Source: a virus
Direction: 5' to 3' (one strand)
DNA: 64,000 nucleotides
Virus record (IMG/VR): IMGVR_UViG_3300032516_000016
Location: 3,632 to 67,631 of that record
Part shown: positions 5,696 through 61,265 of the stretch, piece by piece
Numbering within the stretch: position 1 is the first letter of the stretch
Layout: every line of letters starts with the position of its first letter
Translations under genes and position numbers: made by a program
Notes under the pieces: model-generated
What the model was told of the DNA's origin: nothing
Databases searched by the model: none
What the model saw: only the letters and a program-made list of their open reading frames with translations

Positions 5696-5725
5696 AGAGT
5701 CCCGGCCCCGCAGGGCCGGGACTCT
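5696..5725 (-). terminator. 13-bp stem hairpin with C(UGCG)G loop on the transcribed strand
   Basis: agagtcccggccc-cgca-gggccgggactct, directly after the stop of 5726..5962; no U tract, so function uncertain. Confidence 0.55.
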
Positions 5726-5962
5726 CTAGGCCACCACGAAGTTCTGCTTGATCTTCTTCTCTTTTACCAGAGTCTTGATCGCTACCTTTGCGACCCTGTC
5801 GCTTACCCCCGCGTTCACCAATTCGTCAATGGTGCCCTTGCCACCCATGATCAGCTCGAATACCTGGAACTTCTCGCTCCATGTTACGACGGGCGCTCTC
5901 TCTGTCGTTACCTTCGGTGCAGGTTGTGCAACCGGTTTCTTTGTCTCGAATTTAGCTTCCAT
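5726..5962 (-). CDS. small winged-helix-like protein
   Basis: GTIDELV...VAKVAIKTLVKEKKI. Confidence 0.5.
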   Translation of the reverse strand: MEAKFETKKPVAQPAPKVTTERAPVVTWSEKFQVFELIMGGKGTIDELVNAGVSDRVAKVAIKTLVKEKKIKQNFVVA

Positions 5963-6947
5963 TTTCCATCATCTCATTCCATCGCGCTAAGGCGTGCGTA
6001 TAGTCATAGTACTTTACTGAGTCCTGCGCGTTATCTGCGCATAGTTGCATGAACTCCCCATCGTTCAAGAGCTTGCGTAACAAGTTCTCCATCGTTTGGT
6101 CATCCACTGGGTCGCACACGAGCAACGGGAACAATCGACGCATTGCGGAGATCGTGTTGCTCCCCACGGTCGGCACGCCGAGCGCGGCGGCATCAACGAC
6201 GCCGCGTCCGTAGGTGTGCTGAGGTGTTACATCCATGTTAAGGTAGCTCTTTGCAAGTAGTTGCATGTAGTTAGGGTAATCCAACCGATCAACTATGTCA
6301 TCGAAGTATCCATCTATTGCAACTGGTGGTCTGCCATCCAGATGGAAGTTCATCAGTACTGTTGATAGCTCGAACTCTTTGCGCAGTTTTCTTGTAGCGT
6401 AGAATCCATATTCCCATGTATTTAGGTATCTGTGATGTTGACACGAGATTACATGAGCTTCTGGTACAGGCTTGCGATAGCATTTGGCAATTGTCCATAC
6501 ATCCACCGGATGAGGGATACACCAAATTTTTCGGCCAGTATGTCTTTCTAATCTACTAGCAGCAAATTCTTCTACATGGAATATAAAGTCAGCGCTCAAA
6601 GCCATCTTCTCGAATATGAAGAAGTCCATTGTCGAGAACATGTCAACAGCGTGATCCACGTTCATCACGATCTTGGTATCGGAGCTGCCCAGTACGTCGC
6701 GAATTGCCGCGACGTAGCTCGCGTTGCCAGGAGTGTAGTTGACGTGGATCACGTCATAGTGTTCCATGAATTCGCGAGTTAGGTTCGACGAAAATGTTCC
6801 TTCGCCTTCAAATCGCTTGAACACTTCGGTCCATGCGAACAGACCGCTCATCATTAGCGGCCATTTCTTCTGGCCGTCGTTCTCCGGTATAGTCGGATGC
6901 ATTACTCGACCTATTGGGTCGAGTCCTGAGAACAAGCAGTATTTCAT
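5952..6947 (-). CDS. GT-B (GT4-like) glycosyltransferase
   Basis: C-terminal HTYGRGVVDAAALGVPTVGS, a variant of the GT4 E-x7-E motif; IPHPVD. Confidence 0.75.
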   Translation of the reverse strand: MKYCLFSGLDPIGRVMHPTIPENDGQKKWPLMMSGLFAWTEVFKRFEGEGTFSSNLTREFMEHYDVIHVNYTPGNASYVAAIRDVLGSSDTKIVMNVDHAVDMFSTMDFFIFEKMALSADFIFHVEEFAASRLERHTGRKIWCIPHPVDVWTIAKCYRKPVPEAHVISCQHHRYLNTWEYGFYATRKLRKEFELSTVLMNFHLDGRPPVAIDGYFDDIVDRLDYPNYMQLLAKSYLNMDVTPQHTYGRGVVDAAALGVPTVGSNTISAMRRLFPLLVCDPVDDQTMENLLRKLLNDGEFMQLCADNAQDSVKYYDYTHALARWNEMMENGS

Positions 6948-7462
6948 TTAGTTCCTCCAAAATTCAGTCTAGCGAATTTTCCAAAGTGCAATGTTGCTGC
7001 TTCATCATACTTTTTTGCCGCGTCCAGTTCATTCTCGAAATATCCTAGATGAATTTTTTTATCATTTACTCTGATTTGTGCTGTCCAGTTATTACCTCGT
7101 TTATACCATGTCACTCCTTTGTATATTGAAGATACATGTAATTGTTTTTTTACATTTGAGCAATTTTCTTGATGAGTTGATAGACGTAAATTCGATATCG
7201 TGTTATTTAATGGATTTCCATCTATGTGATCAATTTCTAGTTCATGTGGTATTTCTTTATTTGTTTTTTGTTCCCATATAACACGATGTAATTTTATCGT
7301 GGTCGGTCTATTTGTTTCACTTATTAACCGTCTCCTTCCTACATAATATGATCCTTGATCATGATGTTTCATTGCTTGCCATTTCCATTGTGATAGATAA
7401 TCATATAATATATCATCTACCAATGTTGTTTTTTCTTGAGTTAATTTAATTTCCATCATCAA
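6944..7462 (-). CDS. HNH-AP2 homing endonuclease
   Basis: IDHIDGNPLNN...NLR; SIYKGV..W.AQI...LGYF...AAKKYD AP2 domain; AT-rich. Confidence 0.9.
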   Translation of the reverse strand: MMMEIKLTQEKTTLVDDILYDYLSQWKWQAMKHHDQGSYYVGRRRLISETNRPTTIKLHRVIWEQKTNKEIPHELEIDHIDGNPLNNTISNLRLSTHQENCSNVKKQLHVSSIYKGVTWYKRGNNWTAQIRVNDKKIHLGYFENELDAAKKYDEAATLHFGKFARLNFGGTK

Positions 7463-8397
7463 ATCCTACCTTTTAACGCCCAATTTATCCAATGCATCCA
7501 ACGTTTGCATACCACCTCAGCTTTATAATATCTTAATATACACTCTTTTCTACTGGTGGTGAACTCATGAGTTTTGTTTTTCTCTATAGTTATTGCTTCA
7601 CTTAATGCATCTTTTATTGATCCATTTGATCGTACATCCCCATTATATGATCTCGTGTAATCATATAATTCAGGATGTATAGAATAATACCAGGAGCTAT
7701 ATGGTCCCACTGGCGTTGAATCCATATAACATCCTTCCGCAGTATTCATCCCTGGTGCTTTGTACGGGCTAGGGGGGTCCAGGATGATGTGCGCCCTGGC
7801 CTTCGCGGCAATCGTGTCACGCCACGATTTACCGGACACCACCTCGAACTTGATGCTTAGTTCATCTATCTGCTTCTTGGCCTCTTCGATGAACTGTTGC
7901 TTCTTTGCGGTTACGGCGCAGCACACGGTAAGTTCCGAATTCTTCGGAATTCCTCGGGTCAAGGTATCGATCTCATCCACGTCGATGATCAGGCTTTCGA
8001 AGAATGCGGTTGCTATCAGGTTCGGGGTTATCGTTTGATCCGTGGCCGGGGGCACTATGAGCGTGTGGCCTCGGAGCTGGTTTACCAGGTTGCTCCCGGT
8101 TGCTGCACGCAGTGGCGATCCCAGGCCGTGAATGCACGAGTTTCGTGCATTCACGTACTTACGCAACTCGCCCCCGCCCAGGTACTGATCCTGCATGATG
8201 AAGAAGTCGGTGTTCTTGGCGAAATCAATTACTTCGTCATCGCTTACGTGCCCTGCTACCCAATCCGTCTTGTACCCCAGGTAGCTCTCGGCCATCGTTA
8301 GTGACTTGGCATCCCACCCCAAGTGATCACGCATGGCCTTGGCGAGTAGATAGCCCTGCGCACCGGAATCCATGCTTGAAATGTACAGTACCCTCAT
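7459..8397 (-). CDS. putative glycosyltransferase (GT-B-like)
   Basis: MRVLYISS N-terminus (ATGA overlap at 8394-8397), GMNTAEG motif, next to another GT. Confidence 0.6.
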   Translation of the reverse strand: MRVLYISSMDSGAQGYLLAKAMRDHLGWDAKSLTMAESYLGYKTDWVAGHVSDDEVIDFAKNTDFFIMQDQYLGGGELRKYVNARNSCIHGLGSPLRAATGSNLVNQLRGHTLIVPPATDQTITPNLIATAFFESLIIDVDEIDTLTRGIPKNSELTVCCAVTAKKQQFIEEAKKQIDELSIKFEVVSGKSWRDTIAAKARAHIILDPPSPYKAPGMNTAEGCYMDSTPVGPYSSWYYSIHPELYDYTRSYNGDVRSNGSIKDALSEAITIEKNKTHEFTTSRKECILRYYKAEVVCKRWMHWINWALKGRI

Positions 8398-8663
8398 GCC
8401 CAAGTCCATCCTTTTGCTTCCAGATCTTTGACCATCTGTATCTGTTCCGCGATTGACCATCTGTCCATGTCTATTTCACCGTGTGCAGTTCGTGTTTTGT
8501 ACCCAGACCAATCTTGTAAGTCATACTTTATCATCACGCTCGGAACGTAGCCGGTTGGCCGTATAGTCTCGAACTCTTTCCACGCCTCATCTATCGGCAA
8601 GCCCACGATCTTTACCTTTAGCACCATTGGTGTCCAGGTAGTAATGTGTTTTCTCATCGTCAT
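8394..8663 (-). CDS. hypothetical protein
   Basis: ATGA-coupled ORF. Confidence 0.5.
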   Translation of the reverse strand: MTMRKHITTWTPMVLKVKIVGLPIDEAWKEFETIRPTGYVPSVMIKYDLQDWSGYKTRTAHGEIDMDRWSIAEQIQMVKDLEAKGWTWA

Positions 8664-8911
8664 GTTTTCCTCGCATTTCGGTTCCTGTAGCATACTTTGA
8701 TCATCCTTCTCACGCACTCGAAGCTCTCCTCGATCTCCTCATCTTTAAGCTCGCGCGGCGGCAGTATCACAAGCAAATCAGTCTCCAGGATCTCCATGTT
8801 CTGCCCCGGCGTCACGCCTTCAGTTCTCACCCACTCCAGGGGTAATGCTATTCGCATTGACCCGCCACTTTTCACTGCATCTCTCTCATGTATCCTCATT
8901 AGTGTACCCAT
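8660..8911 (-). CDS. AbrB/MazE/SpoVT-type DNA-binding protein
   Basis: KSGGSMRIALPLEWVRTEGVTPGQ; first gene of the leftward operon. Confidence 0.8.
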   Translation of the reverse strand: MGTLMRIHERDAVKSGGSMRIALPLEWVRTEGVTPGQNMEILETDLLVILPPRELKDEEIEESFECVRRMIKVCYRNRNARKT

Positions 8912-8934
8912 AACTGTCTCCGCTTTACACACTA

Positions 8935-8985
8935 CTTGTTAGTATATAATGGTGTTCCTCGGTGTACCAAATAGCTAAATTCTAT
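8935..8985. promoter_or_regulatory. divergent archaeal promoter region
   Basis: AGTATATAAT TATA-like box between divergent operons. Confidence 0.5.
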
Positions 8986-9003
8986 CGATGTCAGTACACT
9001 TTT

Positions 9004-10029
9004 ATGTCTTTCGTAATGCCGCAACGGGCGAGGTACCCCCCAGAATCCGTCACGGAGGCCCAACGCACCATTGCCGTAGGAGTTGGCGATAGCCAACTCG
9101 CATCGTATCTGGTTGACCCGTTTTATGCTCAGGTTGAGCAGCTTCACTTCGATACGCTTACTGGTCCCGCTGACGTGATGATTGGTACTGATGGGTATGC
9201 CGAGAAGTTACGTATCCGCAATAACGCGATATTCCCGAATTGGAATCGCGAGTTTCCCGCGAAGATCGTTGCACAACGCAGCATCGAGATCCGGGCCAGG
9301 GCGCAGCTCGCTGCGATTGCGAACTTCTACAGCAGGTATAACATCACGGTCAGGCGACCCTACATTATTGACAAGATCATCATGGGTCTGGATCTCACGG
9401 CTGAAGAAGAGGATATTGCGGTGAACTTGCTCGGTGACAAGGCTAACCCGATTGACCTGTACGACAGGTTGAATATTGGTGTACTGCCGAACCAATCGTG
9501 CTTCAACTACATGAGCCTCCTGGGTGACGAGATCCTGGATACCTTTGATGACCAGATCTTCTCTGTCACGCGCACGATCGTGCCACTCGCTGCCTCCGAT
9601 AAGCCTCACGCTGCTCCCAACGTGGTTGGAAATTTCCTCAATCCGCCTTACCAGAAAGAGGTATGGGTGCTGCTCGGTGTCTGGATCGATTGGCCGCATT
9701 TGCCGGTCGCGAACGACTCGTACATCACTATTGACAGAGACGACGACTCGGACTATATGAAGCTTGATGTCACGGCTCTGCCTAGGAATCACCTTGTGCG
9801 GTGCTACGTTCCCTTCATAGAGGAGCTGCGGGTGTACCTGGAATCCGCCACCGGCTCGGCCACCGAAGACATAGGCGTAGGCTATGTTTACGGATGCCGC
9901 AACATGAGCATAATTGATCATGAGCTGTGGGATGTACCTTACAACTCGCAGGTTGAACGCAATGAGGCACTCAAGCTCGTTGAGCGGTATGGCATGAAGA
10001 ACATGATGAAGGCCGGTCTGGTGCTGTAA
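9004..10029 (+). CDS. putative virion structural protein (beta-rich)
   Basis: first gene of the plus-strand structural cluster; no recognised catalytic motif. Confidence 0.5.
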   Translation: MSFVMPQRARYPPESVTEAQRTIAVGVGDSQLASYLVDPFYAQVEQLHFDTLTGPADVMIGTDGYAEKLRIRNNAIFPNWNREFPAKIVAQRSIEIRARAQLAAIANFYSRYNITVRRPYIIDKIIMGLDLTAEEEDIAVNLLGDKANPIDLYDRLNIGVLPNQSCFNYMSLLGDEILDTFDDQIFSVTRTIVPLAASDKPHAAPNVVGNFLNPPYQKEVWVLLGVWIDWPHLPVANDSYITIDRDDDSDYMKLDVTALPRNHLVRCYVPFIEELRVYLESATGSATEDIGVGYVYGCRNMSIIDHELWDVPYNSQVERNEALKLVERYGMKNMMKAGLVL

Positions 10030-10031
10030 CT

Positions 10032-10484
10032 ATGGCTCTACCGCATCCAACTGCGAAGGAAGAGGCCAGCACCCCTCTTGTCGGCCATATTTTCTCTCGG
10101 TTTGATGTGATCCCTGCGTCTGGGGAAGTGTCATACTCGATCGCTAATGATAAGCGAGACGGGTTCGGTCGGCCTGGACGGACTGGGTATATCGTGAATG
10201 GGAGCATTGCGAATAATCTGTTCTTCCAAATCTCGTCGGATGGTGAGCAATTTTCCAACGAGATCACGTTGCCCGCGTTCGGTGCAGGGTTTCCGAATTT
10301 CGTTCGGATCATGTATGACGATGGTATCCTGATACACACGGTTCGATTCCGGGGCACCATCGGTCAGCCCTACGGGCTGGTCGTGGCACCTGGCCGGGAG
10401 CCGGAGGGGTTCATCCCGCAGTTCGCTCCGTCTCTTGGTGAAGCCGGGCCGCTTCGCAAGATGGGAAGGGGTAAAGTCAAGTGA
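10032..10484 (+). CDS. putative small beta-rich virion protein
   Basis: resembles next gene (D.R.GFG.P...I.N; DDG.LI; .LV..PG). Confidence 0.55.
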   Translation: MALPHPTAKEEASTPLVGHIFSRFDVIPASGEVSYSIANDKRDGFGRPGRTGYIVNGSIANNLFFQISSDGEQFSNEITLPAFGAGFPNFVRIMYDDGILIHTVRFRGTIGQPYGLVVAPGREPEGFIPQFAPSLGEAGPLRKMGRGKVK

Positions 10485-10912
10485 TCAAGAAGGTTGAATA
10501 CAGGCACAACCCGTTTGTGATCAACCGATATGCATTCAAGCTAGGTGGCCCTAACGACCTGTACCAGATCGATTTCATAGACGATCGCAAGCAGGGGTTT
10601 GGCGTGCCCGCCAAATCCCTTGTGATACAGAATATCGGAGGAGGGGTGGCAGGAGATTACCTTCACGTGCAGTATGCCGAGAAGAAGCAACACTTCAGCC
10701 CGGAAGTGTCCCTGTACGAAGGTGAGCGACTGATCATCAAGCCAGATGATGGCGTGCTGATAAGTTACGCCATCGTGTGGTCGGACAGCAGGGATCTCGC
10801 GTTCTCGCTCGTCGCGACTCCCGGCCTGTGGACCTGGAAGGAGCTGGTGGACTTGGGGTATATCAAGACCAGGGAAGTCACCGTCGATCCACTTAACGAG
10901 GTGGCATTTTAG
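10481..10912 (+). CDS. putative small beta-rich virion protein, paralog of 10032..10484
   Basis: DDRKQGFGVPA, DDGVLI, SLVATPG shared motifs. Confidence 0.55.
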   Translation: MIKKVEYRHNPFVINRYAFKLGGPNDLYQIDFIDDRKQGFGVPAKSLVIQNIGGGVAGDYLHVQYAEKKQHFSPEVSLYEGERLIIKPDDGVLISYAIVWSDSRDLAFSLVATPGLWTWKELVDLGYIKTREVTVDPLNEVAF

Positions 10913-11304
10913 TGGTCGAACTTGACTACTCGCCTGTGCGTCATCAAATTGATTCATTTGTGCAAAAGCCTACGGTGCTCACTACTCATGTAATCGCTGC
11001 ACCACTAGTTCACTCATTTACGTTGCCACTTGGTATCATACGTCATGTTCAAATAGTGTTTCCCATTGGATGCAATCGAAATGTTGTTATGCAAATATTT
11101 CATCACGGCAACCAATGGCTTCCTGGCAATTTGGCAAGCACATTTAGTGAGATGGGTCATAGTCATCCAATTGAATTGGACGTGTACCGAGATGTGTGGG
11201 AAGGTCAGACAGATTTTGAAATTCGTGCGTGGGGAAATGGTGCATGTTATTGCAATCATGCTATACATGTATATTTCACATGTGAATTATCCGAGGTGCT
11301 ATAA
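10912..11304 (+). CDS. putative virion surface protein, family A scaffold
   Basis: LPLGIIRHVQIVFPIGC...W.NG..NH motif shared with the next three genes. Confidence 0.6.
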   Translation: MVELDYSPVRHQIDSFVQKPTVLTTHVIAAPLVHSFTLPLGIIRHVQIVFPIGCNRNVVMQIFHHGNQWLPGNLASTFSEMGHSHPIELDVYRDVWEGQTDFEIRAWGNGACYCNHAIHVYFTCELSEVL

Positions 11305-11705
11305 TGGTACTCGATTTGCCGGATGGATATGTGCGTGGTAATAATGAAGTTGATAAGTATGCTAAGGTTCTTCAAGTACTTACTACTAATGTCGTCGGGT
11401 TAAAAGCTACTTCTACATTTGATCTACCAATTGGTATTCTTCGCCGGATTGAAATTTATTTTCCATATGGCTGCCTTTACCATTTGTTTGCTACTGTCCA
11501 TCAAGGCGCAACACTCGTTGTTCCTAATGCATTAAGTCCAGATATTTATGTAATTGGTAATGATAAATTATTTGTTTTTGATATGTTTAAGTATATCACT
11601 CCTGCAACGGTTTCATATACCATCAGTGGTTGGAATGATGGCACATGTAATTGGAATCATAATATAAATGTTAACATTTTGATTGAAAAAGTGGTGGTGC
11701 CGTAA
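11304..11705 (+). CDS. putative virion surface protein, family A scaffold (DLPD N-terminus)
   Basis: MVLDLPDGY; LPIGILRRIEIYFPYGC; GWNDG. Confidence 0.65.
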   Translation: MVLDLPDGYVRGNNEVDKYAKVLQVLTTNVVGLKATSTFDLPIGILRRIEIYFPYGCLYHLFATVHQGATLVVPNALSPDIYVIGNDKLFVFDMFKYITPATVSYTISGWNDGTCNWNHNINVNILIEKVVVP

Positions 11706-13000
11706 TGGTAAGTGACTTGCCAGATGGATATACACCGTTGAATAACCCAGTGGACAACTACGATTTCAACATTTCCGTTGCTCCCTCCGATGCCCTCGGC
11801 ATCAATTGGACTATTCGGGTGAGTGCCGCTGACAACTACTGGGCTTGCGTTTGCTACGGCAACGGCCTCTTCGTGGCCGTTTCGGTAACAGGCGTGGGTA
11901 ACAGGGTGATGACATCACCCGATGGCATCGTTTGGACAATACGGGTGAGCGCAGCCGATAATGATTGGTACAGCGTTTGCTATGGCAACGGCTTGTTCGT
12001 GGCAGTGGCGACGACCGGTGGTGCGAATCACGTGATGACCAGTGTGAATGGCATTGCTTGGACGTTGCAGGCTAGTGCAGCAGATATCGAGTGGCGGAGT
12101 GTCTGTTACGGAGGGGGGTTGTTTGTAGCTGTGGCACAGACCGGCGTAGGAAACCGTGTGATGACATCACCGGATGGGATCATCTGGACCATAGGTGTCA
12201 GCGCTGCTAACAACAATTGGGTCAGTGTCTGCTATGGGAACGGGATGTTCGTTGCAGTAGCGACGTCTGGTGCAGGCAACCGGGTTATGACCAGCACTAA
12301 CGGCTTGGCGTGGGTCATTCGTACCAGTGCCGCAAATAATGCCTGGCGCAGTGTCTGCTATGGCAATTGCCTGTTCGTCGCTGTCTCGACCACGGGAACT
12401 GCGCTTGTCGCAGATCGTGTGATGACATCTCCGGACGGCGTGTTGTGGACATTGCGTCTATGTGCTTCAACTAATCAATGGATAAGTGTCTGCTACGCCA
12501 ATGGCCTCTTCGTGGCTGTTGCGGGATCGGGTGTTGGCAATCGGGTGATGACATCTCCAGATGGTATCACGTGGACAACACGTGTCAACCCAGTTGATAA
12601 TGATTGGTATTTTGTCTGTTACGGCAATGGCGTGTTCGTGTCCGTTGCCAGCAATGGTGCTGGCAACAGGGCTATGTCTTCGAATATCAAGGTGCTTGCG
12701 ATCACCTTGCCAATTGGCATACTCAGACGGGTGATGATAGACTTCCCGGATGGATGCAACAACCGGATAAGGGTAAACGTGCTACATGGTGCTGTGCAGA
12801 TCATTCCGATTGATGTTGGTGGCGTGGGCACGTCGTATCACAGCTTTAACGATTTCATGCTCGACTTTAACACGTTCCGTGTCATCGGGCCAAGTGGCAC
12901 AGCGTTCACCCTCAACGGGTGGAATGACGGAGAAGCAGGAATCGATTGGTCACATGTGATATCGTTCACGTTCATGATTGAGAGGGTGTCAGTTCCGTGA
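11705..13000 (+). CDS. putative receptor-binding protein: 7-bladed beta-propeller inserted in the family A scaffold
   Basis: 7 x ~42-aa repeats W.SVCYGNGLFVAV...TSPDG..W (BNR/Asp-box-like), flanked by the two scaffold halves. Confidence 0.75.
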   Translation: MVSDLPDGYTPLNNPVDNYDFNISVAPSDALGINWTIRVSAADNYWACVCYGNGLFVAVSVTGVGNRVMTSPDGIVWTIRVSAADNDWYSVCYGNGLFVAVATTGGANHVMTSVNGIAWTLQASAADIEWRSVCYGGGLFVAVAQTGVGNRVMTSPDGIIWTIGVSAANNNWVSVCYGNGMFVAVATSGAGNRVMTSTNGLAWVIRTSAANNAWRSVCYGNCLFVAVSTTGTALVADRVMTSPDGVLWTLRLCASTNQWISVCYANGLFVAVAGSGVGNRVMTSPDGITWTTRVNPVDNDWYFVCYGNGVFVSVASNGAGNRAMSSNIKVLAITLPIGILRRVMIDFPDGCNNRIRVNVLHGAVQIIPIDVGGVGTSYHSFNDFMLDFNTFRVIGPSGTAFTLNGWNDGEAGIDWSHVISFTFMIERVSVP

Positions 13001-13006
13001 GGTTTT

Positions 13007-14317
13007 ATGGTCCGAGATCTTCCTGACAATTATAAGCAGGGTAACAATCTGCTCGATGTGTACCACCAGTCAGTTCCTGTAGCCGTAGCCAACAGTCCAG
13101 GCATCGCCTGGACTATTCGGGTGAGTGCGGCTGATAACAATTGGTACAGCGTTTGCTACGGTAACGGCCTCTTCGTGGCCGTGGCCAATACTGGCGTCGG
13201 AAACCGCGTGATGACCAGTCCTGACGGAATTGTGTGGACCATTCGGGTGAGTGCGGCTGATAATGATTGGCACCGTGTTTGCTACGGTAACGGCCTCTTC
13301 GTGGCCGTTGCTTACTCGGGCGTCGGAAACCGGGTGATGACCAGTCCTGACGGAATTGTGTGGACTCTTCGGGTGAGTGCAGCTGATAACAGTTGGCTCG
13401 GCGTATGCTACGGTAACGGCCTCTTTGTGGCCGTTGCCATTACTGGTGTCGGAAACCGCGTGATGACCAGTCCTGACGGAATTGTGTGGACTATTCGTGT
13501 GAGTGCGGCTGATAACAGTTGGTACAGCGTTTGCTACGGCAATGGCCTCTTCGTGGCCGTTGCTTACACGGGCGTCGGAAACCGGGTGATGACCAGTCCT
13601 GACGGAATTGTGTGGACTCTTCGGGTGAGTGCGGCTGATAACAATTGGCGGAGTGTTTGCTACGGTAACGGCCTCTTCGTGGCCGTGGCCAATACTGGCG
13701 TCGGAAACCGCGTGATGACCAGTCCTGACGGAATTGTGTGGACTCTTCGGGTGAGTGCGGCTGATAACAGTTGGCAGAGTGTTTGCTACGGTAACGGCCT
13801 CTTCGTGGCCGTTGCTTACTCGGGCGTCGGAAACCGCGTGATGACCAGTCCTGACGGAATTGTGTGGACTATTCGTGTGAGTGCGGCTGATAATGATTGG
13901 TTGGGTGTTTGCTACGGCAATGGCCTCTTCGTGGCCGTTGCTTACTCGGGCGTCGGAAACCGCGTGATGACCTCTAATTGCAAGAGTGTTACATTCACTC
14001 TACCAGTTGGCATCCTCCGGCATATCCTGGTATTCTTCCCTTCTGGTTGTCATGCGCAGGTGCAAGCATGTATCTACCATGGTGTGAACCAGATCTTACC
14101 GGTTGATTCGTTTCTCAATGGATCGAATACGAATTACTTAATGGGCGACGATCGATGGTGGGATGTTAAAGGGTTGTTCGAAGTGGTTAAGACTGGGAGC
14201 ACGACATTTACGATACATGCTTGGAACATTAACTACGCGAATGTGCTCGCGTGGATGACATATTATCAACATGTTATTGAGGTCTACTTCATGGTCGAGC
14301 GGGTGGTGGTTGTATGA
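13007..14317 (+). CDS. putative receptor-binding protein: 7 near-identical propeller blades inserted in the family A scaffold
   Basis: 7 x 42-aa repeats; same architecture as the upstream paralog. Confidence 0.75.
   Translation: MVRDLPDNYKQGNNLLDVYHQSVPVAVANSPGIAWTIRVSAADNNWYSVCYGNGLFVAVANTGVGNRVMTSPDGIVWTIRVSAADNDWHRVCYGNGLFVAVAYSGVGNRVMTSPDGIVWTLRVSAADNSWLGVCYGNGLFVAVAITGVGNRVMTSPDGIVWTIRVSAADNSWYSVCYGNGLFVAVAYTGVGNRVMTSPDGIVWTLRVSAADNNWRSVCYGNGLFVAVANTGVGNRVMTSPDGIVWTLRVSAADNSWQSVCYGNGLFVAVAYSGVGNRVMTSPDGIVWTIRVSAADNDWLGVCYGNGLFVAVAYSGVGNRVMTSNCKSVTFTLPVGILRHILVFFPSGCHAQVQACIYHGVNQILPVDSFLNGSNTNYLMGDDRWWDVKGLFEVVKTGSTTFTIHAWNINYANVLAWMTYYQHVIEVYFMVERVVVV
13109..13977 (+). repeat. 126-bp coding tandem repeat, about 6.9 copies
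   Basis: unit tggactattcgggtgagtgcggctgataac...gtgatgaccagtcctgacggaattgtg repeated almost identically. Confidence 0.95.
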
Positions 14318-14753
14318 GTGACCTACCGGATTTTATCAAGGCACCTCACCGGGCTTCGGTATGGCTCGAACCGGTCAGGTGCTAACAAGGGTGTATTATG
14401 ATGCGGATATCGCCACAGGTGTCACGCAGGTTAACACCACGGTTGTTAACCTGCTAGGCTACCTGTTCACGATTGATACGGTTCACCTGATGTCCAGGCG
14501 CATAGCCACGGCGTGGTTGAACAATGCACCATGGCGGTACATGATTGAGATCAACACTGTGTTCCCCCCCGCAGCGGCGGTGTGGAACACGTATTGGGCC
14601 GGCTATGTCGAAGGGTCGAAAACCCTTCGCCTGTCACACGTGACAGGCGCAGGGATACCTGATGTTTACTCGTTCAGGGAGACTATTATCAACGATACGT
14701 GGCAGACCAGGAATTTCAGGTCGATGCTGTACTACCTCTACAACGAGCGGTGA
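14314..14753 (+). CDS. family B virion protein interrupted by a -1 frameshift (candidate programmed frameshift)
   Basis: ATG 14314 gives MSDLPDF; a -1 shift at G_GAT_TTT continues YQGTSPGFGMARTGQV, matching paralogs at 14756 and 15441. Confidence 0.7.
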
Positions 14754-14755
14754 CG

Positions 14756-15448
14756 ATGAGCGATTTGCCCGACTTCTACCACGGAGTTTCCCCGGGGTAC
14801 CCTGTTAGCCGAAGTGGAATGCATCTTGAGCAGGTGTCATGGGCAGGAAATATCGCAGCCAGCTCGTACCAGTGCTTCACCTGGTTCCCGTTCGTGGCGT
14901 ACCGGATCACGACGACAGGAGCCACAACTGTCACCATAGGTGACGGTTTTGGGCCGTACTTTGTTGGCGCGTGCGCCGGGGCCGGGGTGTGGAACTTTGC
15001 GTTCACGCAGCCCAGGACTGGGTACCTGCGCTTGTCGTGGCTGGACTTTGCAGCCACGGTCGCAGGCACGTACCTCAAGGTCGAAGCGCTTCGGCGCAAT
15101 GGCACTACGTTTACAGTTATCTACGAAGGATTTGGGGGCGTGGGCTTTGGTATGGCAGGAGTGTACTACGCTGATGCCATGGGTATGGATTGGGGGCCGG
15201 ATAGTGTGCTCGTTCGCACTGATGCGCGTGGGCCTCAGAGGTATGAGACGTTCTTCGGCCTCGCGGGTCTCGTGTCGTACTACTCGAGTTTCCGGTATGA
15301 GTTGGAACGTGACCATTCGTTCGCGTTCAACACGAGTATAGGGTGTCCGAACTATGGGTTCAACGAGTGGATATATAACGATAACTGGAAGGCCAGGGCG
15401 TTTTCGCGCGTTTTCCGCTACACCTGGGATGAGGTGATGAATGTCTGA
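14756..15448 (+). CDS. family B virion protein with an inserted domain of roughly 90 aa
   Basis: MSDLPDFYHGVSPG; DSV...TDARGPQRY; YNDNW. Confidence 0.65.
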   Translation: MSDLPDFYHGVSPGYPVSRSGMHLEQVSWAGNIAASSYQCFTWFPFVAYRITTTGATTVTIGDGFGPYFVGACAGAGVWNFAFTQPRTGYLRLSWLDFAATVAGTYLKVEALRRNGTTFTVIYEGFGGVGFGMAGVYYADAMGMDWGPDSVLVRTDARGPQRYETFFGLAGLVSYYSSFRYELERDHSFAFNTSIGCPNYGFNEWIYNDNWKARAFSRVFRYTWDEVMNV

Positions 15449-15872
15449 TCTTTCGGATTTTCTGGGTGGCACCTCCCCAGGGTTTGGCAGGTTGAGGCAA
15501 GGGCAAGTTGTGACCATAAATGGTCAAATTGACCCTGTTTTCGGCTGGTCAGGGATCATCGCGCCTGGTGCTTCTGCGACTAACACTTTTCCGGTTGCTG
15601 CCGGGGTGCTTTTTCAGATCGATTCCGTCCAGCTCTGGACCGATGCAAAGGGGCCGCAGAGGTACGCGATCGAGGTCGAGTTCCTGGCTGCGCCAGGAAC
15701 GTGGCTGGTTTACTACTACGGGATCTACGAGTCCGACGCGGTAGTTCGCATCCAGCATGTCATGGGTTCATGGCTTGCCGGGGTGTCGCAGTGGCGAGAG
15801 ATTGTTTACAATGATAACTATGTTGACCGAAACTTTATATGTATTCGGACTGTAGTAACTAATGAGGCTTGA
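15441..15872 (+). CDS. family B virion protein
   Basis: MSDLSDFLGGTSPG; IDSV.L.TDAKGPQRY; YNDNY. Confidence 0.65.
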   Translation: MSDLSDFLGGTSPGFGRLRQGQVVTINGQIDPVFGWSGIIAPGASATNTFPVAAGVLFQIDSVQLWTDAKGPQRYAIEVEFLAAPGTWLVYYYGIYESDAVVRIQHVMGSWLAGVSQWREIVYNDNYVDRNFICIRTVVTNEA

Positions 15873-16093
15873 AGATGAAGAAGATGGTCAGGATTTCGGA
15901 CACGTCGGGTAAGGAATTGCCCGATGGGAGCGGGTATTTGAACATCACGATCGAGCGCAAAGGATATATGCTCGTGCGGGATGAGGGGAAGAATTTCATC
16001 GGCGGGCCTGTGGTGTTTCACATTGAGGCGGGTGATGAGGATAAGCTTGTGAAGTCACTGGTTTGGCAACAGATGGAGTCGATGCCTAGATGA
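15869..16093 (+). CDS. hypothetical protein
   Basis: coupled ORF in operon. Confidence 0.5.
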   Translation: MKMKKMVRISDTSGKELPDGSGYLNITIERKGYMLVRDEGKNFIGGPVVFHIEAGDEDKLVKSLVWQQMESMPR

Positions 16094-16512
16094 CGCAAGA
16101 ATTCTTGCGTCGAGTTGATGGATATAATTTCCCGTTTATTTGTTCTGTGAGTGCAAATGTTGCTAGAAATGCGTCATTAGTTAATAATGCACCTGCTGGT
16201 CCTGGTCGGATTGAGTCATTCACTATTGTAGTTGTGGATGTTGGTGATGCTACTACAAATAATAATAATTTGATCATTACTATTGATGGTGTTGTGGTGT
16301 TTGCGGGTGGTATTGGAGGGGTGGTACCTAAATATAGTAAACCCTATTGGTTTGGACCATTTACAGCAGGAAGAATTGGTACTGCTGATACAGCATTTGA
16401 AATATTGCTTAATCTGGATTATGAGTCATCAGCATCAGTTGCAATTCAGAATACCACATCTCCTGATCCATGTATATTTTATAGTACTATATTTGGTCGC
16501 CGGGGGTTGTAG
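16090..16512 (+). CDS. beta-rich hypothetical (putative virion) protein, AT-rich
   Basis: ATGA-coupled ORF. Confidence 0.55.
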   Translation: MTQEFLRRVDGYNFPFICSVSANVARNASLVNNAPAGPGRIESFTIVVVDVGDATTNNNNLIITIDGVVVFAGGIGGVVPKYSKPYWFGPFTAGRIGTADTAFEILLNLDYESSASVAIQNTTSPDPCIFYSTIFGRRGL

Positions 16513-18296: not shown

Positions 18297-18314
18297 GTTC
18301 CCTCCAAATACTTA

Positions 18315-18342: not shown

Positions 18343-18424
18343 AGAGACGCGCTAGGTCAATGCCTCGATCAATTCGAGTTGCAATGCGATTGCAACTCGT
18401 GCTGATCGTTGTTCACATGAGTCA

Positions 18425-19500: not shown

Positions 19501-19501
19501 T

Positions 19502-50027: not shown

Positions 50028-50077
50028 GGTAGGGTTGTTCAAGTGAGGAGCATTAGCTCCTCATTATGTCAAGTTTT

Positions 50078-50386: not shown

Positions 50387-50414
50387 AGGCGTGATCGCCG
50401 CAGCGATCACGCCT
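50387..50414 (-). terminator. C(UGCG)G hairpin followed by a U tract
   Basis: aggcgtgatcgc-cgca-gcgatcacgcct 2 nt after the stop; minus-strand tttttt follows. Confidence 0.7.
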
Positions 50415-50416: not shown

Positions 50417-50764
50417 CTATTCGATCGATTCCATGAATATTGTGCCGAATAAGCTGTCAATTTCAGTTATTATTGTTGTTCCCAACTCAAGTATCTCTTC
50501 GCCGTCCTCGGTCTGTAGGTGTAGCGTTCCGTTGCCGATTATCGTATTTTCAAGTGCATATTTTTTGGTTTTTCGATTGTGCGTTATATACCCTTCAGTT
50601 GACATATTGCCAAGGCGATAGCGTATTTTGTTGCAAAATTTGCGCATTTGCTGATCTGTCACCTTTGTGTTTGCTTCCTTGTGTATCTGCTCCGCGATCT
50701 CCCACGTAGTCTTTGGGTTATCGATCAAGCACCAAAGTATGGCCTTATCCAGTACGTCTTGCAT
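50417..50764 (-). CDS. winged-helix DNA-binding protein
   Basis: KTTWEIAEQI...IRYRLGNM..EGYI. Confidence 0.65.
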   Translation of the reverse strand: MQDVLDKAILWCLIDNPKTTWEIAEQIHKEANTKVTDQQMRKFCNKIRYRLGNMSTEGYITHNRKTKKYALENTIIGNGTLHLQTEDGEEILELGTTIITEIDSLFGTIFMESIE

Positions 50765-55814: not shown

Positions 55815-58004
55815 GTGTCTATGGCTTGGACACCTCCAAATTCTACGGTTTGGTTATTGTATGGTAGTACTCATTTTTATCCAGGCGTATTGTATCCTCC
55901 TATATCGTATTGGCAGGATGGTGTTCTAAGGATTTGGCCTGCAGAATGTGGATCGGATGGTTTTGGTGTTAAGTGTATTCAAAAAACCTGGCCCAATGGT
56001 TATGTTGAATGCATTGGTAAACGTCCCATTTTACCGTTTATTGTTGGCGGTTACACGTTATCGGCGTCATTTCCATATTATTTGATTTATGCGTATGCTA
56101 ATCAGTTGTATAATGTTCAAATTGAAATTGCTAAAACAGTGTTTCGTGATTATATTAATTTGAAAACGGTTGAAACGGTCAATTATATTAATTCATTGGT
56201 TGCTCCTGTTGATATTCAGTCGAATCTTGATAACTTTGATAGTAAACTTGCTGAGAGATTTGCTTTATATAAGTCATTAGTTGCAACGTCTGATTCGTCT
56301 GATAATTGGTCATATTCAGATGCTGCTAAGTCGGTGTATACGCCTATTCTCGATGATGCTAATGCTATGTGGTTATGGTGGGTTAATGGACCCACGCGGG
56401 ATCAGTATTGTTATGGAAGTCTTGGATGTACTTATGTTACTGATGATCCCACTGCTGCTGGTGATATTCGGTTTGAAGGCGTTGTAATACCAAGGCGTGT
56501 ATTTTCGGCTTATAACACTGAAATGAGTCAATTGTATAATGGGTTTTTTTCGTATATTAATACATTATTGTCTTCATCAATTACATCTGTTATAAATGCG
56601 ATGAATGCGGCGTCAGCCGCTATCGCGGCTGCCAAGAGCGCACGCTGCATCACCCGCGTCGCTGCTGCGATGCGGGTGATGGATGCGGATTTGGCTACGT
56701 TTAGCCCCTACGTTGACTCGGCCACGTCCGAGGCGACCAGCGCAATTAATGCGCTGGTCGCGCCTGGTGTTATCGAGTCGCATCTTGGTGATTATGATTC
56801 TCTTTCCGCAGGTATCCTTGCTACGTACCACTTTAAGGTGGCGCTTCCGGATGCTACGGGCAACTGGGGATACTCCGCAGAGGCCACTGCCAGGTACACC
56901 AGGATTGTGACCGAGTCACAATCTCGGGTACTTGGGTCGATTAACGCTGCCGGGTGTCAGACACAGGCTGAGATTGATGCCGCCAGCTCATCAGTTACCA
57001 AAAAGGTAACTGATGCTTTTGCCTCGTGGGGCACATTGCTCACGTCATCGGTCACTGCACTCTCCCAGGCACTCAACGCCGCTACTGCGGCGTTGATTGT
57101 GGCAGTCAACGCCGCTGCGGCGGCGTTGATTGTGGCAGGATCTGGTGCGTTGCGTGTTCGGGTGGACTCGGCCAAGCGGGTGTATAAGGCTGCGGTGGAC
57201 TTGTTCATTGATTCGACTATTGCTAATGACATGAATGCGAAGGTGACTGCACAGGTTGATCCGGTGCTCGCCCGAGTTCCTTTGCTCGTTGACTCGTACA
57301 CTGCGCAGGTGGTATCGATAAGTTTCATGGATTCACCGAATTTTCGAAACCAAATTCGCACCATCAGCTCTGATGGTGTGAAGGTTGTGGATGATGGTGT
57401 TGCGGCTGCGGAAACCGTGTTCAATGGTATCTCAAGCTACTGGCTCGAAGGTGAGCCTAGCCTGGCGGATAGCCGTTTGTCCTCTGCGTTCACTGAGTTC
57501 AGTAACACTATCGGCTCGTACCCGGATACTGTTGACAACCGTGCCTACGTCACCTCAGCCGTTGACGAAGTCAACGGCTACGCGGGGGGTAAGATAAGGC
57601 AGCTTGAGACGTTTATCGAATCTGCGAACCTTGCATTCAAGCAGAAGGTGTATGATGTTCGCGTTGCTGCTTACAAAAAGATAAATGATTATATAATGGG
57701 ACGGCCTATTGTACGGTTGACAGGCAAGTTTTCGATCCCGGTTATCAACTGGTCGGGCACGAGTCGTCTTGGTGTTGAGGTCAAGAATGTTGGAAAGGTT
57801 GCGTGGCATGGATGGTTTGGGTGGAAGTTCATTGATTCGAGTAACAAGGTGTACGTGTACGACCCTACGCCGACCATCGCGCCGATGGTCGGAGCGGGGG
57901 AGACTGTGATGATAACCGTTGATGTGCCTTTTGGCACGTTGTTCCCCTATGGCCCGCCTGGTGATCTGCGTGCGCGGTTGATACCTACGGCTGGTGGTGG
58001 CTGA
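55815..58004 (+). CDS. large Ala-rich putative virion protein with internal duplication and C-terminal Ig-like domain
   Basis: IN.LVAP..I.S.L...D..NW.YS unit twice; RPIVR...V.N.GKV.W.G. Confidence 0.65.
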   Translation: MSMAWTPPNSTVWLLYGSTHFYPGVLYPPISYWQDGVLRIWPAECGSDGFGVKCIQKTWPNGYVECIGKRPILPFIVGGYTLSASFPYYLIYAYANQLYNVQIEIAKTVFRDYINLKTVETVNYINSLVAPVDIQSNLDNFDSKLAERFALYKSLVATSDSSDNWSYSDAAKSVYTPILDDANAMWLWWVNGPTRDQYCYGSLGCTYVTDDPTAAGDIRFEGVVIPRRVFSAYNTEMSQLYNGFFSYINTLLSSSITSVINAMNAASAAIAAAKSARCITRVAAAMRVMDADLATFSPYVDSATSEATSAINALVAPGVIESHLGDYDSLSAGILATYHFKVALPDATGNWGYSAEATARYTRIVTESQSRVLGSINAAGCQTQAEIDAASSSVTKKVTDAFASWGTLLTSSVTALSQALNAATAALIVAVNAAAAALIVAGSGALRVRVDSAKRVYKAAVDLFIDSTIANDMNAKVTAQVDPVLARVPLLVDSYTAQVVSISFMDSPNFRNQIRTISSDGVKVVDDGVAAAETVFNGISSYWLEGEPSLADSRLSSAFTEFSNTIGSYPDTVDNRAYVTSAVDEVNGYAGGKIRQLETFIESANLAFKQKVYDVRVAAYKKINDYIMGRPIVRLTGKFSIPVINWSGTSRLGVEVKNVGKVAWHGWFGWKFIDSSNKVYVYDPTPTIAPMVGAGETVMITVDVPFGTLFPYGPPGDLRARLIPTAGGG

Positions 58005-59239: not shown

Positions 59240-59781
59240 GGAATGTTATGGTTGAAGAAGAGATTGAGTTGCCATCGTTTGGCTCAAAGGTTCCATCACC
59301 GTTGTCTGGTGATTCAGGCGAGGTGCTGGCTAATTTGGCATCAAATGTATTTGATTCTGGCGTCGTTCCATCGGCTGAAGTGTCTGGTGGCGGGTTTGGT
59401 GCAGTTCCCACGCCCGGTGAAATTTCATCTGGCGACATAGGCATTGGTGAGACCACGGTACTTCCGTCGCTTGCGGGTGGCACGTTCTCCAAGGGTCTCT
59501 CTGCGTCTGCATCAGCGCAGACGCCTTCGGCGTCTGCGCTTAAGGGTGAACCCACCATGAGTCAGGTCGATAAGGTTTATGATGCCACGAATACGTGTAG
59601 GAGCAATGCCGAGATCGTTAAGCTCACAGGTCTGGACCTCGCCACGGTAGCGACATGCGTAGCATGGCTCGTGAAGAAGGGTTGGATCGTGATGGATGAC
59701 AATAAGCGCTCATGCTCCATCGAGGCTATGGGCAAGTTGAAGACGAAGCTTGCTAAGATTTGCGATTTGTGTGCTAGGTGA
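59236..59781 (+). CDS. low-complexity N-terminus + winged-helix C-terminus
   Basis: AEIVKLTGLDLATV...L.KKGWI. Confidence 0.6.
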   Translation: MRNVMVEEEIELPSFGSKVPSPLSGDSGEVLANLASNVFDSGVVPSAEVSGGGFGAVPTPGEISSGDIGIGETTVLPSLAGGTFSKGLSASASAQTPSASALKGEPTMSQVDKVYDATNTCRSNAEIVKLTGLDLATVATCVAWLVKKGWIVMDDNKRSCSIEAMGKLKTKLAKICDLCAR

Positions 59782-59890
59782 TTTATGATGTCCGAAACTG
59801 AGTTATCCAGGAAACAGAAAGAACTTGATGAGGAACTGAGACGAGCTGCTGAGAATGCCATAAGAGAAGAACAACAGCGGAGGAAATGAT

Positions 59891-61240
59891 ATGGTATCTC
59901 AATTTTTTAAACCAACGACATATGCACCGATAACTTTTAAACAGTCGACTAATGTAACACCAGGAAAACTCGGTTTCACAGTTCCAGGCATAACACCCAA
60001 AACGACCTACAATTATACCCCGTCAACAAAACCAATCAATATCACCAAGATGCCAACACTACAAATTTCTAAATACACCATTCCGACAGCAGTGAAATTG
60101 AAAACTGATCCAAATAAACTGATAGCAGATGTCAACAATATGCTAAACACGATAAGCAAAAATGTTATCACTACGCATATACAAGCTCAGGACAATATAC
60201 TGAAAGCAACGTTGAAATCTACCTCGTCCGAGGCCATAAAGATAAACGATACGTTGAAAACTGTGTTGGGTACATTGACACCAGGTGCGACGAACAATCA
60301 AATTAAGACTAATGTGAATGCGATACTGAATCTGCAAACTAACCTTGATAAGCTAACGGTAGCATCCTCCGCATTCTCCATAGCTCCGCAGATAAAGGCC
60401 ATTTCTGATAGTGGTCGCGCAGCGATTGCACATGTCACTAACAACATGAATACGTTACTCACAAGATTCGACTCTGATATCTCTGCATTAAAATCTACGG
60501 AGATAAACACACCACAACAGAAAGCACATCTAAACAACTTGATGGCACAGCTCGACAGTAATAAGAAAATTTTAATGGATGAAGGTAAAAGCACGATTAC
60601 TAAGTTGTCAGAACTTACCAAGAACAATATCACGGAATTGCAGAACATGAACAAAGTAAGACTCAAAGTTATGTCTGCTGGTTCAGAGGTTCGTGCTGAT
60701 ATTGTTGGTGAGATGATAACTCCGCGATCGGCACCATTATTATTACCTATAAAAATTGTAAAAGCTAGTGAGATGGCATATGATATACTCACAATGCCAA
60801 AAGATTTTAGAACATATGTAGAGCAACGGTTTGGCATAACACCTACCGAAGCTCGATCTGGGTTTCTTGCTACAACAAAGCGTTCTCTAGATGGTAAGGA
60901 GACGATGTTTCAATATGCTATAAAGTGGTCATTTGCCGATAGAGCCAATGCTGTGTATCCGATATTAGCAGTAGCACCACGCGATACAATGATTTTGCCA
61001 TCGCCTTGGAAACCACCAGTAGATTATCCTCCTAAACGTTCTGTTCAACCTCCGGTTTATGTGCCTCCTAAGCCAGTTAAAGTGCAAATGGATATTGGTG
61101 AAAGTAATGGCGGTGGTAGTTCTGGCGGGAGAATTATTACAGTTAAACTAGATTCTGCTAATGCTTATATGAAAGCACATCCAGAAGCTCGTGCGAAAGA
61201 TGTACCACAACAATTTCAAAGACCATCTTCAGCAGACTGA
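59891..61240 (+). CDS. Thr/Lys/Asn-rich helical protein ending in SSAD
   Basis: 449-aa ORF with GGAGG RBS; followed by a 14-bp hairpin. Confidence 0.7.
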   Translation: MVSQFFKPTTYAPITFKQSTNVTPGKLGFTVPGITPKTTYNYTPSTKPINITKMPTLQISKYTIPTAVKLKTDPNKLIADVNNMLNTISKNVITTHIQAQDNILKATLKSTSSEAIKINDTLKTVLGTLTPGATNNQIKTNVNAILNLQTNLDKLTVASSAFSIAPQIKAISDSGRAAIAHVTNNMNTLLTRFDSDISALKSTEINTPQQKAHLNNLMAQLDSNKKILMDEGKSTITKLSELTKNNITELQNMNKVRLKVMSAGSEVRADIVGEMITPRSAPLLLPIKIVKASEMAYDILTMPKDFRTYVEQRFGITPTEARSGFLATTKRSLDGKETMFQYAIKWSFADRANAVYPILAVAPRDTMILPSPWKPPVDYPPKRSVQPPVYVPPKPVKVQMDIGESNGGGSSGGRIITVKLDSANAYMKAHPEARAKDVPQQFQRPSSAD

Positions 61241-61265
61241 GTCCTCGCTTCGCGAGGACTCAGTC
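61235..61265. terminator. 14-bp hairpin between convergent genes
   Basis: gactgagtcctcgc-ttc-gcgaggactcagtc. Confidence 0.65.

Follow-up and report, generated by a model that had tools for sequence, protein, structure and literature searches.

Perfect hairpins in large excess within and between the genes of an uncultured virus, including a UGCG-loop set at gene ends

We analysed a 64,000-nt stretch of viral DNA (hereafter the window), which comprises bases 3632–67631 of one 67,631-base contig, the IMG/VR virus record IMGVR_UViG_3300032516_000016. A preliminary description had marked it for dispersed hairpins with unrelated stems and UNCG loops, mostly UGCG, on the transcribed strand, and had proposed that these form a punctuation system at the level of RNA. 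Those hairpins are real but amount to only about eight of the 104 perfect hairpins found in the contig, most of the others lying within open reading frames (ORFs) and carrying other loops. The hairpin excess, its maintenance at the level of the nucleic acid and its occurrence throughout a family of related contigs are well supported. As to what it means, we tentatively favour, at rather less than even confidence, a reading in which the gene-end hairpins are one fraction of a lineage-wide load of perfect hairpins of about 10 bp, which would be RNA elements where they lie at gene ends and structures of single-stranded DNA where they lie inside genes. Unless marked as genome positions, coordinates are those of the window.

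Perfect inverted repeats with a stem of at least 8 bp and a loop of 3–8 nt were searched for exhaustively, and the 104 found (99 in the window and 5 in the preceding 3.6 kb) compare with 5.3 ± 2.5 in 30 dinucleotide-preserving shuffles; for stems of at least 10 bp the corresponding figures are 54 and 0.27. Stems span 8–14 bp, with the excess over shuffles peaking at 9–11 bp, and loops measure 3 nt in 38 hairpins and 4 nt in 39. The densities that result, 1.54 per kb (stem of at least 8 bp) and 0.80 per kb (at least 10 bp), are 7-fold and 23-fold higher than in unrelated prokaryote loci totalling 401 kb (0.21 and 0.035 per kb). They likewise exceed those of the control genomes lambda (0.21 and 0.02), N4 (0.30 and 0.02) and STSV1 (0.46 and 0.14), by 3- to 7-fold at the shorter threshold and by 6- to 40-fold at the longer. 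Under the definition of a published survey, which takes perfect repeats with arms of at least 10 and a spacer of 0–8 (PMC13155455), this genome has 21.9 bp of inverted repeat per kb; that survey gives means of 1.93 (viruses), 3.14 (bacteria) and 1.23 (archaea) and describes its repeats as mainly intergenic.

Here, 82 of the 104 hairpins lie wholly within ORFs, 20 lie between ORFs and two span a gene end; the density is 1.39 per kb inside ORFs and about 2.4 per kb outside, the gene-end class included. When codons were shuffled synonymously within each gene, which preserves both the protein and the codon usage of that gene, the count inside ORFs dropped from 82 to 5.1 ± 2.2 for stems of at least 8 bp and from 40 to 0.93 for stems of at least 10 bp. 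Loops tend to lie in those registers that pair third codon positions with constrained ones (16 and 13 versus 6 among three-base loops), and we propose that the hairpins are kept at the nucleic-acid level largely via codon choice. An assembly artefact is excluded by the ORFs that run through the hairpins and by the same trait in independent assemblies.

The stems themselves are close to all-or-none. Only 16 imperfect stems have one internal mismatch and at least 10 pairs in total, many of these being merely 3–4-bp extensions of perfect stems, and pairing is mildly raised 2–6 positions outside the perfect core. A motif search of the flanks returned only a weak C...G complementarity 4–6 nt outside the stems, and no conserved flank motif, cleavage motif or target-site signature was seen around the hairpins. 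Spacing is Poisson-like (coefficient of variation 1.09) and, within genes, the distribution is even apart from a scarcity in the first 30 nt (1 versus 4.3 expected). Coding-region structure beyond what protein and codon usage account for (82 versus 5.1), together with the co-varying pairs described below, recalls the genome-scale ordered structure of RNA and single-stranded-DNA viruses, which also sits in synonymous sites and shows co-varying pairs. As described for those viruses, however, such structures are densely packed and not perfect, containing bulges and G.U or G.T pairs, whereas here there are discrete perfect stems of 8–14 bp about 650 nt apart in a 68-kb DNA genome.

Comparison with relatives was made through a conserved protein of 437 amino acids (19502–20815), which has eight homologues at 52–61% identity and is encoded by eight metagenome contigs and one contig of a metagenome-assembled genome (MAG). 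These nine contigs (L001–L009) are colinear with the window at 15–26 kb, have 36–42% G+C and carry 0.97 perfect hairpins per kb. Because the window hairpins in this interval align gap-free to their orthologues, they were made in place by substitution and not by insertion; in the relatives, only L006:3716 and L007:6516 look inserted. At least four orthologous hairpins show compensatory changes. The hairpin at 17466 (Table 1) is kept at L003:8428, where protein identity is 67%, with an A-T to T-A exchange; L001:2254 and L003:6072 differ by G-C to A-T; and L005:328 differs from its counterparts in L002, L003, L008 and L009 by C-G to T-A, with an A.C mismatch in L007. At L007:7441 and L008:1312 the stem is kept and the loop is different. 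Some hairpins altered amino acids of a conserved protein, and at the hairpin at 20767 the relatives encode nearly the same peptide without a perfect stem.

The birth of one hairpin can be followed between L001 and L002, which are 94.6% identical over 2 kb. L001:1553–1573 is a 9-bp hairpin where L002, like the more distant L003, shows no more than a weak quasi-palindrome. Six differences separate L001 from L002 within 29 nt, against about 1.6 expected, and five of them each repair a separate non-Watson–Crick pair, three in the left arm and two in the right, two of the repaired pairs having been G.T. All six are synonymous, TELARQAHV being encoded in L001, L002 and L003 alike.

These comparisons bear on whether the hairpins are a functionless by-product of replication, created and re-perfected by intrastrand template switching (quasi-palindrome correction), with the protein-sparing variants surviving; replication by a primase-polymerase and persistent single-stranded DNA might favour such events. 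Such switching is an established class of mutation (PMC7202029, PMC8604942) whose products are perfect inverted repeats separated by short spacers, and which can be mistaken for compensatory change. It would account for stems that are perfect with few imperfect ones, for the Poisson-like spacing, for the absence of strand and G.U signatures and for a rapid turnover among relatives that have the trait in common; loops of 3–4 nt, a GC-rich apex and a stable GNA turn would, in addition, suit a 3' end that folds back. However, template switching is known at hotspots and not as filling viral genes, and its one-arm signature was not found here. For 22 window hairpins we counted, arm by arm, the differences from the majority base of the relatives; the summed arm asymmetry was 30, compared with 35.6 ± 5.9 for random placement and 71 ± 8.6 for overwriting of one arm. 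The birth at L001:1553 altered both arms and solely synonymous sites, the density inside ORFs is near that outside although most random in-gene overwrites should do harm, and some hairpins altered the amino acids of a conserved protein. On balance we consider a functionless by-product unlikely, although less so than the alternatives taken up below. For these 22 hairpins a single template-switch overwrite each was rejected, the changes being even across both arms. The hairpins are thus actively kept perfect, and either selection of point mutations or repeated two-way correction within the hairpin could bring this about; the data fit both a selected function and a self-maintaining by-product of correction, and do not separate the two.

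The three-base loops of the hairpins point towards DNA. GNA or TNC is found in 24 of the 38 three-base loops; read on the sense strand, GNA accounts for 16 (background 8.6%, P 3e-8) and TNC for 8 (background 6.7%, P 0.003), with 11 GAA and 4 TTC loops each several-fold over its own background. As both orientations are enriched, the property is more likely to reside in the DNA than in a single transcript. The closing pair is 5'-C...G-3' in 59 of the 104 hairpins, and the three apical pairs are 75, 75 and 63% G+C as compared to about 50% further out. A GC-rich apex is the opposite of what eases extrusion of a cruciform from duplex DNA, and it fits folding from a single strand. C-G-closed GNA triloops on GC-rich stems, the features of DNA mini-hairpins, are thus present, and GCGAAGC occurs 8 and 10 times on the two strands versus 2.2 and 5.3 in shuffles. 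The d(GCGNAGC) mini-hairpin is reported to be extraordinarily stable in DNA, much less so in RNA, and a poor binder of single-stranded-DNA-binding protein (SSB), and mini-hairpins are placed at G4-type phage primase entry sites, at RSF1010 ssiA (AEP-type primase RepB') and at N4 early promoters (PMC13037366).

The window hairpins are like the mini-hairpins d(GCGNAGC)/d(GCGNNAGC) of G4, St-1, alpha3, RSF1010 ssiA and N4 in their C-G-closed GNA triloops and GC-rich apex, and RepB' of RSF1010 belongs to the same primase superfamily (AEP) as the primase-polymerase of the window. The known mini-hairpins, as described, number one to three per replicon and lie in non-coding origins or promoters with conserved flanks; here, by contrast, there are about 100 sites with unrelated stems, mostly intragenic. 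A role as N4-type hairpin promoters, which would differ from the known ones in having no conserved flanks, is unlikely because about 80 sites are intragenic and in both orientations.

We also considered that all of the hairpins, the intragenic ones included, work in RNA as exonuclease barriers or processing marks that govern the fate of viral messages, which would broaden the earlier proposal. The gene-end class is oriented with transcription and adjoins stop codons, hairpins are scarce at the very start of genes, C-G closure and UNCG loops are classical features of stable RNA, and the mean folding energy of the stems as RNA is −14.9 kcal/mol. For the intragenic majority, though, the signs of a transcript function are missing. 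Stems containing G.U pairs number 28 in the sense and 33 in the antisense reading, and nearest-neighbour energies for the 82 intragenic hairpins favour the sense strand in 13, the antisense strand in 13 and neither in 56, so that there is no strand preference by either measure. On the sense strand there is an excess of GAA and of its complement TTC alike, L001 exchanged two G.U pairs for Watson–Crick pairs, and GNA triloops are described as a DNA motif and not an RNA one (PMC13037366). A function of every hairpin in RNA therefore appears improbable to us, and the findings favour a phenomenon of DNA in a single-stranded stage over one of mRNA for the intragenic majority. In our preferred reading these hairpins, some eighty in number, would matter, or arise, while the DNA is single-stranded in replication, either as SSB-free landmarks or priming sites or, alternatively, as self-maintaining products of hairpin-templated correction. 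We infer both the division into an RNA layer and a DNA layer and the intragenic role.

The composition of the genome is suggestive in this respect. At four-fold sites, read on the sense strand, genes of the minus strand have 41% A and 12% T and those of the plus strand 19% A and 28% T; the plus strand is T-rich and A-poor whatever the orientation of the gene, around the whole contig. A skew of single polarity around a circle is not expected from bidirectional replication from a single origin; the one found here suggests unequal treatment of the two strands along the whole genome, of the kind known from strand-displacement or rolling-circle replication. The encoded primase-polymerase and Y1 HUH nuclease are types of enzyme that work on single-stranded DNA. 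Moreover, the triloops of the GNA/TNC type fall into two domains: between 40857 and 57579 (40.86–57.6 kb), 5 of 6 have GNA on the plus strand, and everywhere else around the circle 17 of 18 have it on the minus strand. A permutation that allowed for the choice of the best interval gave P values of 0.036, 0.005 and 0.011 for stems of at least 8, 7 and 6 bp respectively; the pattern was found post hoc and is a lead. For loops outside the GNA/TNC types, purine content revealed no polarity between domains.

Dispersed single-strand initiation signals, that is SSB-free hairpins on displaced or lagging single-stranded DNA at which the primase-polymerase could start the complementary strand about every 0.6 kb, would make sense of the primase-polymerase gene, of the whole-genome skew, of a design matching that of G4-type origins and RSF1010 ssiA (PMC13037366, PMC8567376) and of a GNA orientation that forms two domains regardless of gene strand. 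Yet the stems have no common sequence, GNA is mostly on the strand that the skew suggests to be less exposed, the skew does not flip where the GNA orientation does, and neither a third of the triloops nor most of the four-base loops belong to the stable DNA type. We regard this explanation as quite unlikely. We give similarly little credence to a broader version in which a family of large, probably archaeal, DNA viruses replicates through long single-stranded intermediates and genome-wide selection keeps about 1.5 perfect DNA mini-hairpins per kb, in conserved genes too and even where amino acids have to change, as structure-defined, sequence-independent entry or priming sites for the primase-polymerase, with GNA polarity reflecting the direction of replication and C(UGCG)G serving as transcript punctuation.

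The gene-end hairpins are a distinct class. Reading of the sequence and the inverted-repeat search confirmed the hairpins of the preliminary description with their stems and loops (Table 1), except for the loop at 40857: a hairpin is present there, but to fold it as c(UUCG)g needs a shift of register, the simplest fold having a 3-nt loop. UNCG loops with C-G closure are found in five C(UGCG)G hairpins and one C(UACG)G hairpin (21822), and also at 57106 inside an ORF. The claimed preference for UGCG stands against a null expectation, with sense-strand TGCG in 6 of 39 four-base loops versus a 4-mer background of 0.385% (P about 1e-8); sense CGCA occurs once in 39, in the hairpin at 30185, whose strand is ambiguous because its extension to 30180–30215 runs through one G.T pair and so pairs on the plus strand only. 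That the loop orientation flips with the direction of transcription is no more than suggestive (6:1, sign test P 0.125; Fisher P 0.067, from two TGCG-on-plus and no CGCA-on-plus in plus-gene blocks versus none and four in minus-gene blocks, with 30185 left out), although the orientation does track the gene strand where neighbouring genes differ (47798, plus; 50387, minus). Stems were claimed to be unrelated; this holds apart from one tandem duplicate and one similar pair, the stem at genome 655–680 resembling that at 5696.

The five C(UGCG)G hairpins start 0, 0, 9, 3 and 2 nt after a stop codon (genome 655, then 5696, 18315, 47798 and 50387), and by the ORF calls used here all five, together with the C(UACG)G hairpin, are on the transcribed strand of the adjoining gene and within 9 nt of its stop. 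For the hairpins as a whole, midpoints fall 0–30 nt after stops in 10 cases versus 4.0 ± 2.1 (Poisson P 0.008). The hairpin at 5696 begins right after the stop of a 78-amino-acid ORF (5726–5962), with the ATG of ORF 5152–5685 10 nt on; that at 18315 is followed after 18 nt by the ATG of the helicase gene, with a GGAGGG Shine–Dalgarno-like box in between. Neither has a U tract, in agreement with the preliminary description, and nor does the hairpin at genome 655. T runs lie directly 3' of those at 47798, 50387 and 21707; the run is T6 at the first two, followed by a TATA-like TTTATATA box at 47798 and by a TTTATAT box at 50387. Terminator-like sites are not enriched (16 versus 19.3 ± 4.4 in shuffles, 44–64 kb), and an intrinsic hairpin-plus-U-tract terminator was rejected as a general class, U runs being present at these three sites and not at 5696, 18315 or genome 655. 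The longest stem, at 61235, lies between the convergent genes 59891–61240 and 61279–61794, with the stop of the plus-strand gene inside its 5' arm.

Hairpins are not needed for transcription termination in archaea. In bacteria, cUNCGg hairpins serve as terminators or stabilisers, and the present ones are alike in their GC-rich stem, C-G closure, UGCG or UACG loop beside a stop, on the strand that the ORF calls give as transcribed, and, in two cases, the oligo-U that follows; they are unlike them in that a U tract is missing from three of the five UGCG hairpins, that terminator-like sites show no enrichment and that the relatives mostly have UGAU loops. We think it fairly probable that the gene-end hairpins act in RNA, in 3'-end protection or intercistronic punctuation. 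About ten of them would act in the transcript by capping and protecting the 3' end of the upstream message or, alternatively, as a mark for processing or attenuation between cistrons, with oligo-U performing termination where it is present (47798, 50387). The earlier proposal of RNA-level punctuation thus survives for this subset, where strand, proximity to stops and a variant at 18340 speak for it, and not as a general description, given that 82 of the 104 hairpins are intragenic, mostly with 3-nt loops and without sense-strand bias. Contigs from four DNA runs differ from 5600–25599 at more than 1000 positions; the variant, among the differences listed, is a change in one such contig that gives G.U in the sense RNA and A.C in the antisense.

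Immediately upstream of the 18315 hairpin on the minus strand, at 18343–18354, ten bases of its 5' arm recur, and its 3' arm (18315–18326) could pair with either copy.

A reading of UGCG as a family-wide signal does not hold, since four hairpins of 10–11 bp, three in relatives and one in the window (21707), carry UGAU. L004:928 is just after a stop, L007:6516 is at the 3' end of a gene and L006:3716 is an in-frame intragenic insertion. Because the gene-end hairpins of the relatives mostly carry UGAU, the UNCG loop is, on the sequences compared, a habit of the window virus and not of the family. UGAU may be a family-level gene-end loop distinct from UGCG; three of the four UGAU hairpins are C-G closed, and two of the four read UGAUGA through loop and stem.

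Table 1. Hairpins and genes referred to in the text, in window coordinates unless marked otherwise
Position	Strand	Feature	Context or basis
genome 655–680 (window −2977 to −2952)		C(UGCG)G hairpin	beyond the window
5696–5725	-	13-bp C(UGCG)G hairpin, plus-strand loop CGCA	sequence read, inverted-repeat search
17466–17488	-	10-bp hairpin, GAA loop	helicase gene, intragenic
18218–18242	-	11-bp hairpin	helicase gene, intragenic; L003 has a 9-bp hairpin of other sequence at the same place
18315–18342	-	12-bp C(UGCG)G hairpin	sequence read, inverted-repeat search
18375–18399	-	11-bp hairpin, CGC loop	same intergenic stretch as 18315 hairpin; inverted-repeat search
20767–20792	-	11-bp hairpin over conserved peptide ..DFEAEVL..	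intragenic
21707–21732	-	11-bp hairpin, UGAU loop	runs into a T5 run
21822–21845	-	10-bp C(UACG)G hairpin	ends 2 nt before stop of ORF 21817–22437
28963–28978 and 28984–28995	-	tandem UGCG hairpins (6 bp and 4 bp)	upstream of ORF 28612–28956; sequence read
30185–30210	ambiguous	11-bp hairpin, CGCA on + (UGCG on -)	A-T closure
30830–33850	-	AEP primase-polymerase domain, N-terminal in a 1006-amino-acid protein	PF09250, E 1e-12
40857–40883	.	12-bp hairpin, GAA (+) / UUC (-) triloop	inside small ORF 40820–40957
47798–47821	+	10-bp C(UGCG)G hairpin	3 nt after stop codon
49590–50027	+	IS200/IS605-family Y1 HUH transposase	HUH and Tyr motifs present
50387–50414	-	12-bp C(UGCG)G hairpin	2 nt after stop of ORF 50417–50764
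57073–57129	+	one 10-bp stem twice (loops UACU, UGCG) in a 33-nt tandem repeat	inside ORF 55815–58004
61235–61265	.	14-bp hairpin, longest stem, TTC (+) / GAA (-) loop

Given that Y1 HUH transposases are a class of enzyme acting on single-stranded DNA hairpins, and that one is encoded here with two perfect 8-bp hairpins 3' of it (50015–50034 and 50044–50063), we considered whether they and the other hairpins represent copies of a palindromic element, either mobile or repeated, of the REP/RAYT or Rickettsia palindromic element (RPE) kind, perhaps spread by this IS200/IS605 transposase. Both known kinds are likewise dispersed hairpins, some of them intragenic, and among the relatives L006:3716 resembles an in-frame insertion and L007:6516 has extra sequence at the 3' end of a gene. 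They are, however, sequence families inserted as modules, whereas the stems here are unrelated save for the similar pair and the tandem duplicate, 79% of the hairpins are intragenic and the window hairpins compared align gap-free, having been made in place. The transposase, moreover, scores as IS200 (142 bits, cut-off 55) and below the cut-off for the REP-associated type (33 bits versus 80). A mobile origin is accordingly very improbable: unrelated stems, together with orthologous alignments free of gaps, exclude REP/RAYT-like and RPE-like modules. The transposase gene has an ATG that overlaps the stop codon of the gene for a C5 cytosine DNA methylase (48634–49590), and for this reason it looks like a member of an operon and not a free-standing insertion sequence.

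Several points weigh against dividing the hairpins into gene-end elements of RNA and intragenic structures of single-stranded DNA. In the codon-aware alignment most window hairpins have no perfect counterpart at the orthologous place, and a turnover this fast also fits a mutational by-product. The GNA domains match neither gene strand nor base skew, with no flip of the skew at their boundaries, and in total GNA is on the minus strand in 18 cases and on the plus strand in 6, mostly opposite the strand that the T-rich skew would expose. One third of the triloops and most four-base loops match no stable-loop motif, and the energy models have no term for GNA triloops, which makes their null result on strand weak evidence. 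On the RNA side, the relation of UGCG orientation to gene strand rests on seven cases, strand assignments depend on home-made ORF calls, the gene-end loop of the relatives is mostly UGAU and not the extra-stable UNCG, and no RNA runs are listed among the sequencing runs that contain the virus.

If the hairpins are selected, a large DNA genome carries a second, structural code through its genes that steers codon choice and even amino acids, and they offer a handle on the replication or expression strategy of an uncultured, probably archaeal, group of viruses. If they are a by-product, the family illustrates in nature how template-directed correction of hairpins can shape coding sequence, to an extent for which there is no earlier report. 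In both cases relatives could be recognised simply by their hairpin density, and the gene-end C(UGCG)G set supplies candidate 3'-end elements of transcripts, amenable to testing, in a host domain not expected to have such hairpins. No large DNA virus with a many-fold excess of intragenic perfect hairpins was found in the literature, a search that did not extend to the supplementary tables, which may include outliers, of PMC13155455 and of a 2026 preprint on pervasive hairpins, the accessible text of which deals with RNA viruses and pararetroviruses.

The contig has 26 identical bases at both ends and, because the two ends have these in common, is probably circular and cut at an arbitrary point. 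The DNA runs that contain the virus, eight of them with at least a fifth of the words sampled from it, carry the label sediment metagenome. The primase-polymerase is the sole polymerase-like protein recognised among the encoded proteins; an XPB/Rad25-like SF2 helicase, a Cas4-like nuclease and a radical-SAM protein are encoded as well. No terminase, portal or capsid gene was recognised among the ORFs tested. Ten ORFs compared with Pfam and PHROGs gave nothing beyond the matches named here, and most other ORFs tested also had no match. Rfam returned no family at gathering score within the window, and no close relatives were present in a phage collection or a viral contig set. The structure predicted for the conserved 437-amino-acid protein was unusable (mean predicted local distance difference test score, pLDDT, 42).

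TTTATA-type boxes lie 25–60 nt 5' of several gene starts, in addition to GGAGG-like ribosome sites, and sigma-70-like promoters are not enriched (25 versus 27.9). It is because of these promoter-like TATA boxes that an archaeal host is plausible. Two other routes to the host were set aside: a 2.5-kb relative contig binned with a Saccharibacteria MAG is too weak a basis for naming one, and the DegT-type aminotransferase was uninformative, its matches being at most 32% identical and spread over many phyla.

In the N-terminal part of the helicase gene (18056–18148), contigs from three other runs have diverged sequence of the same length replacing about 80–90 bases, and this hypervariable patch includes a hairpin (18057–18080). 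Two genes for HNH-AP2 endonucleases (6944–7462 and 61279–61794, both on the minus strand) and one for a protein with three NUMOD3 motifs (48017–48640, plus strand) point to scattered selfish genes of the homing-endonuclease type. PEGA domains occur in two neighbouring proteins of 334 and 537 amino acids (35335–37949, minus strand), which may be virion or surface proteins; they are encoded beside ORFs of 958 and 1689 amino acids that matched no family in Pfam or PHROGs. Finally, a cluster on the minus strand (155–6947) encodes an NAD-dependent epimerase/dehydratase, the DegT-type aminotransferase, a methyltransferase and a weak glycosyltransferase match, suggesting that the virus modifies glycans.

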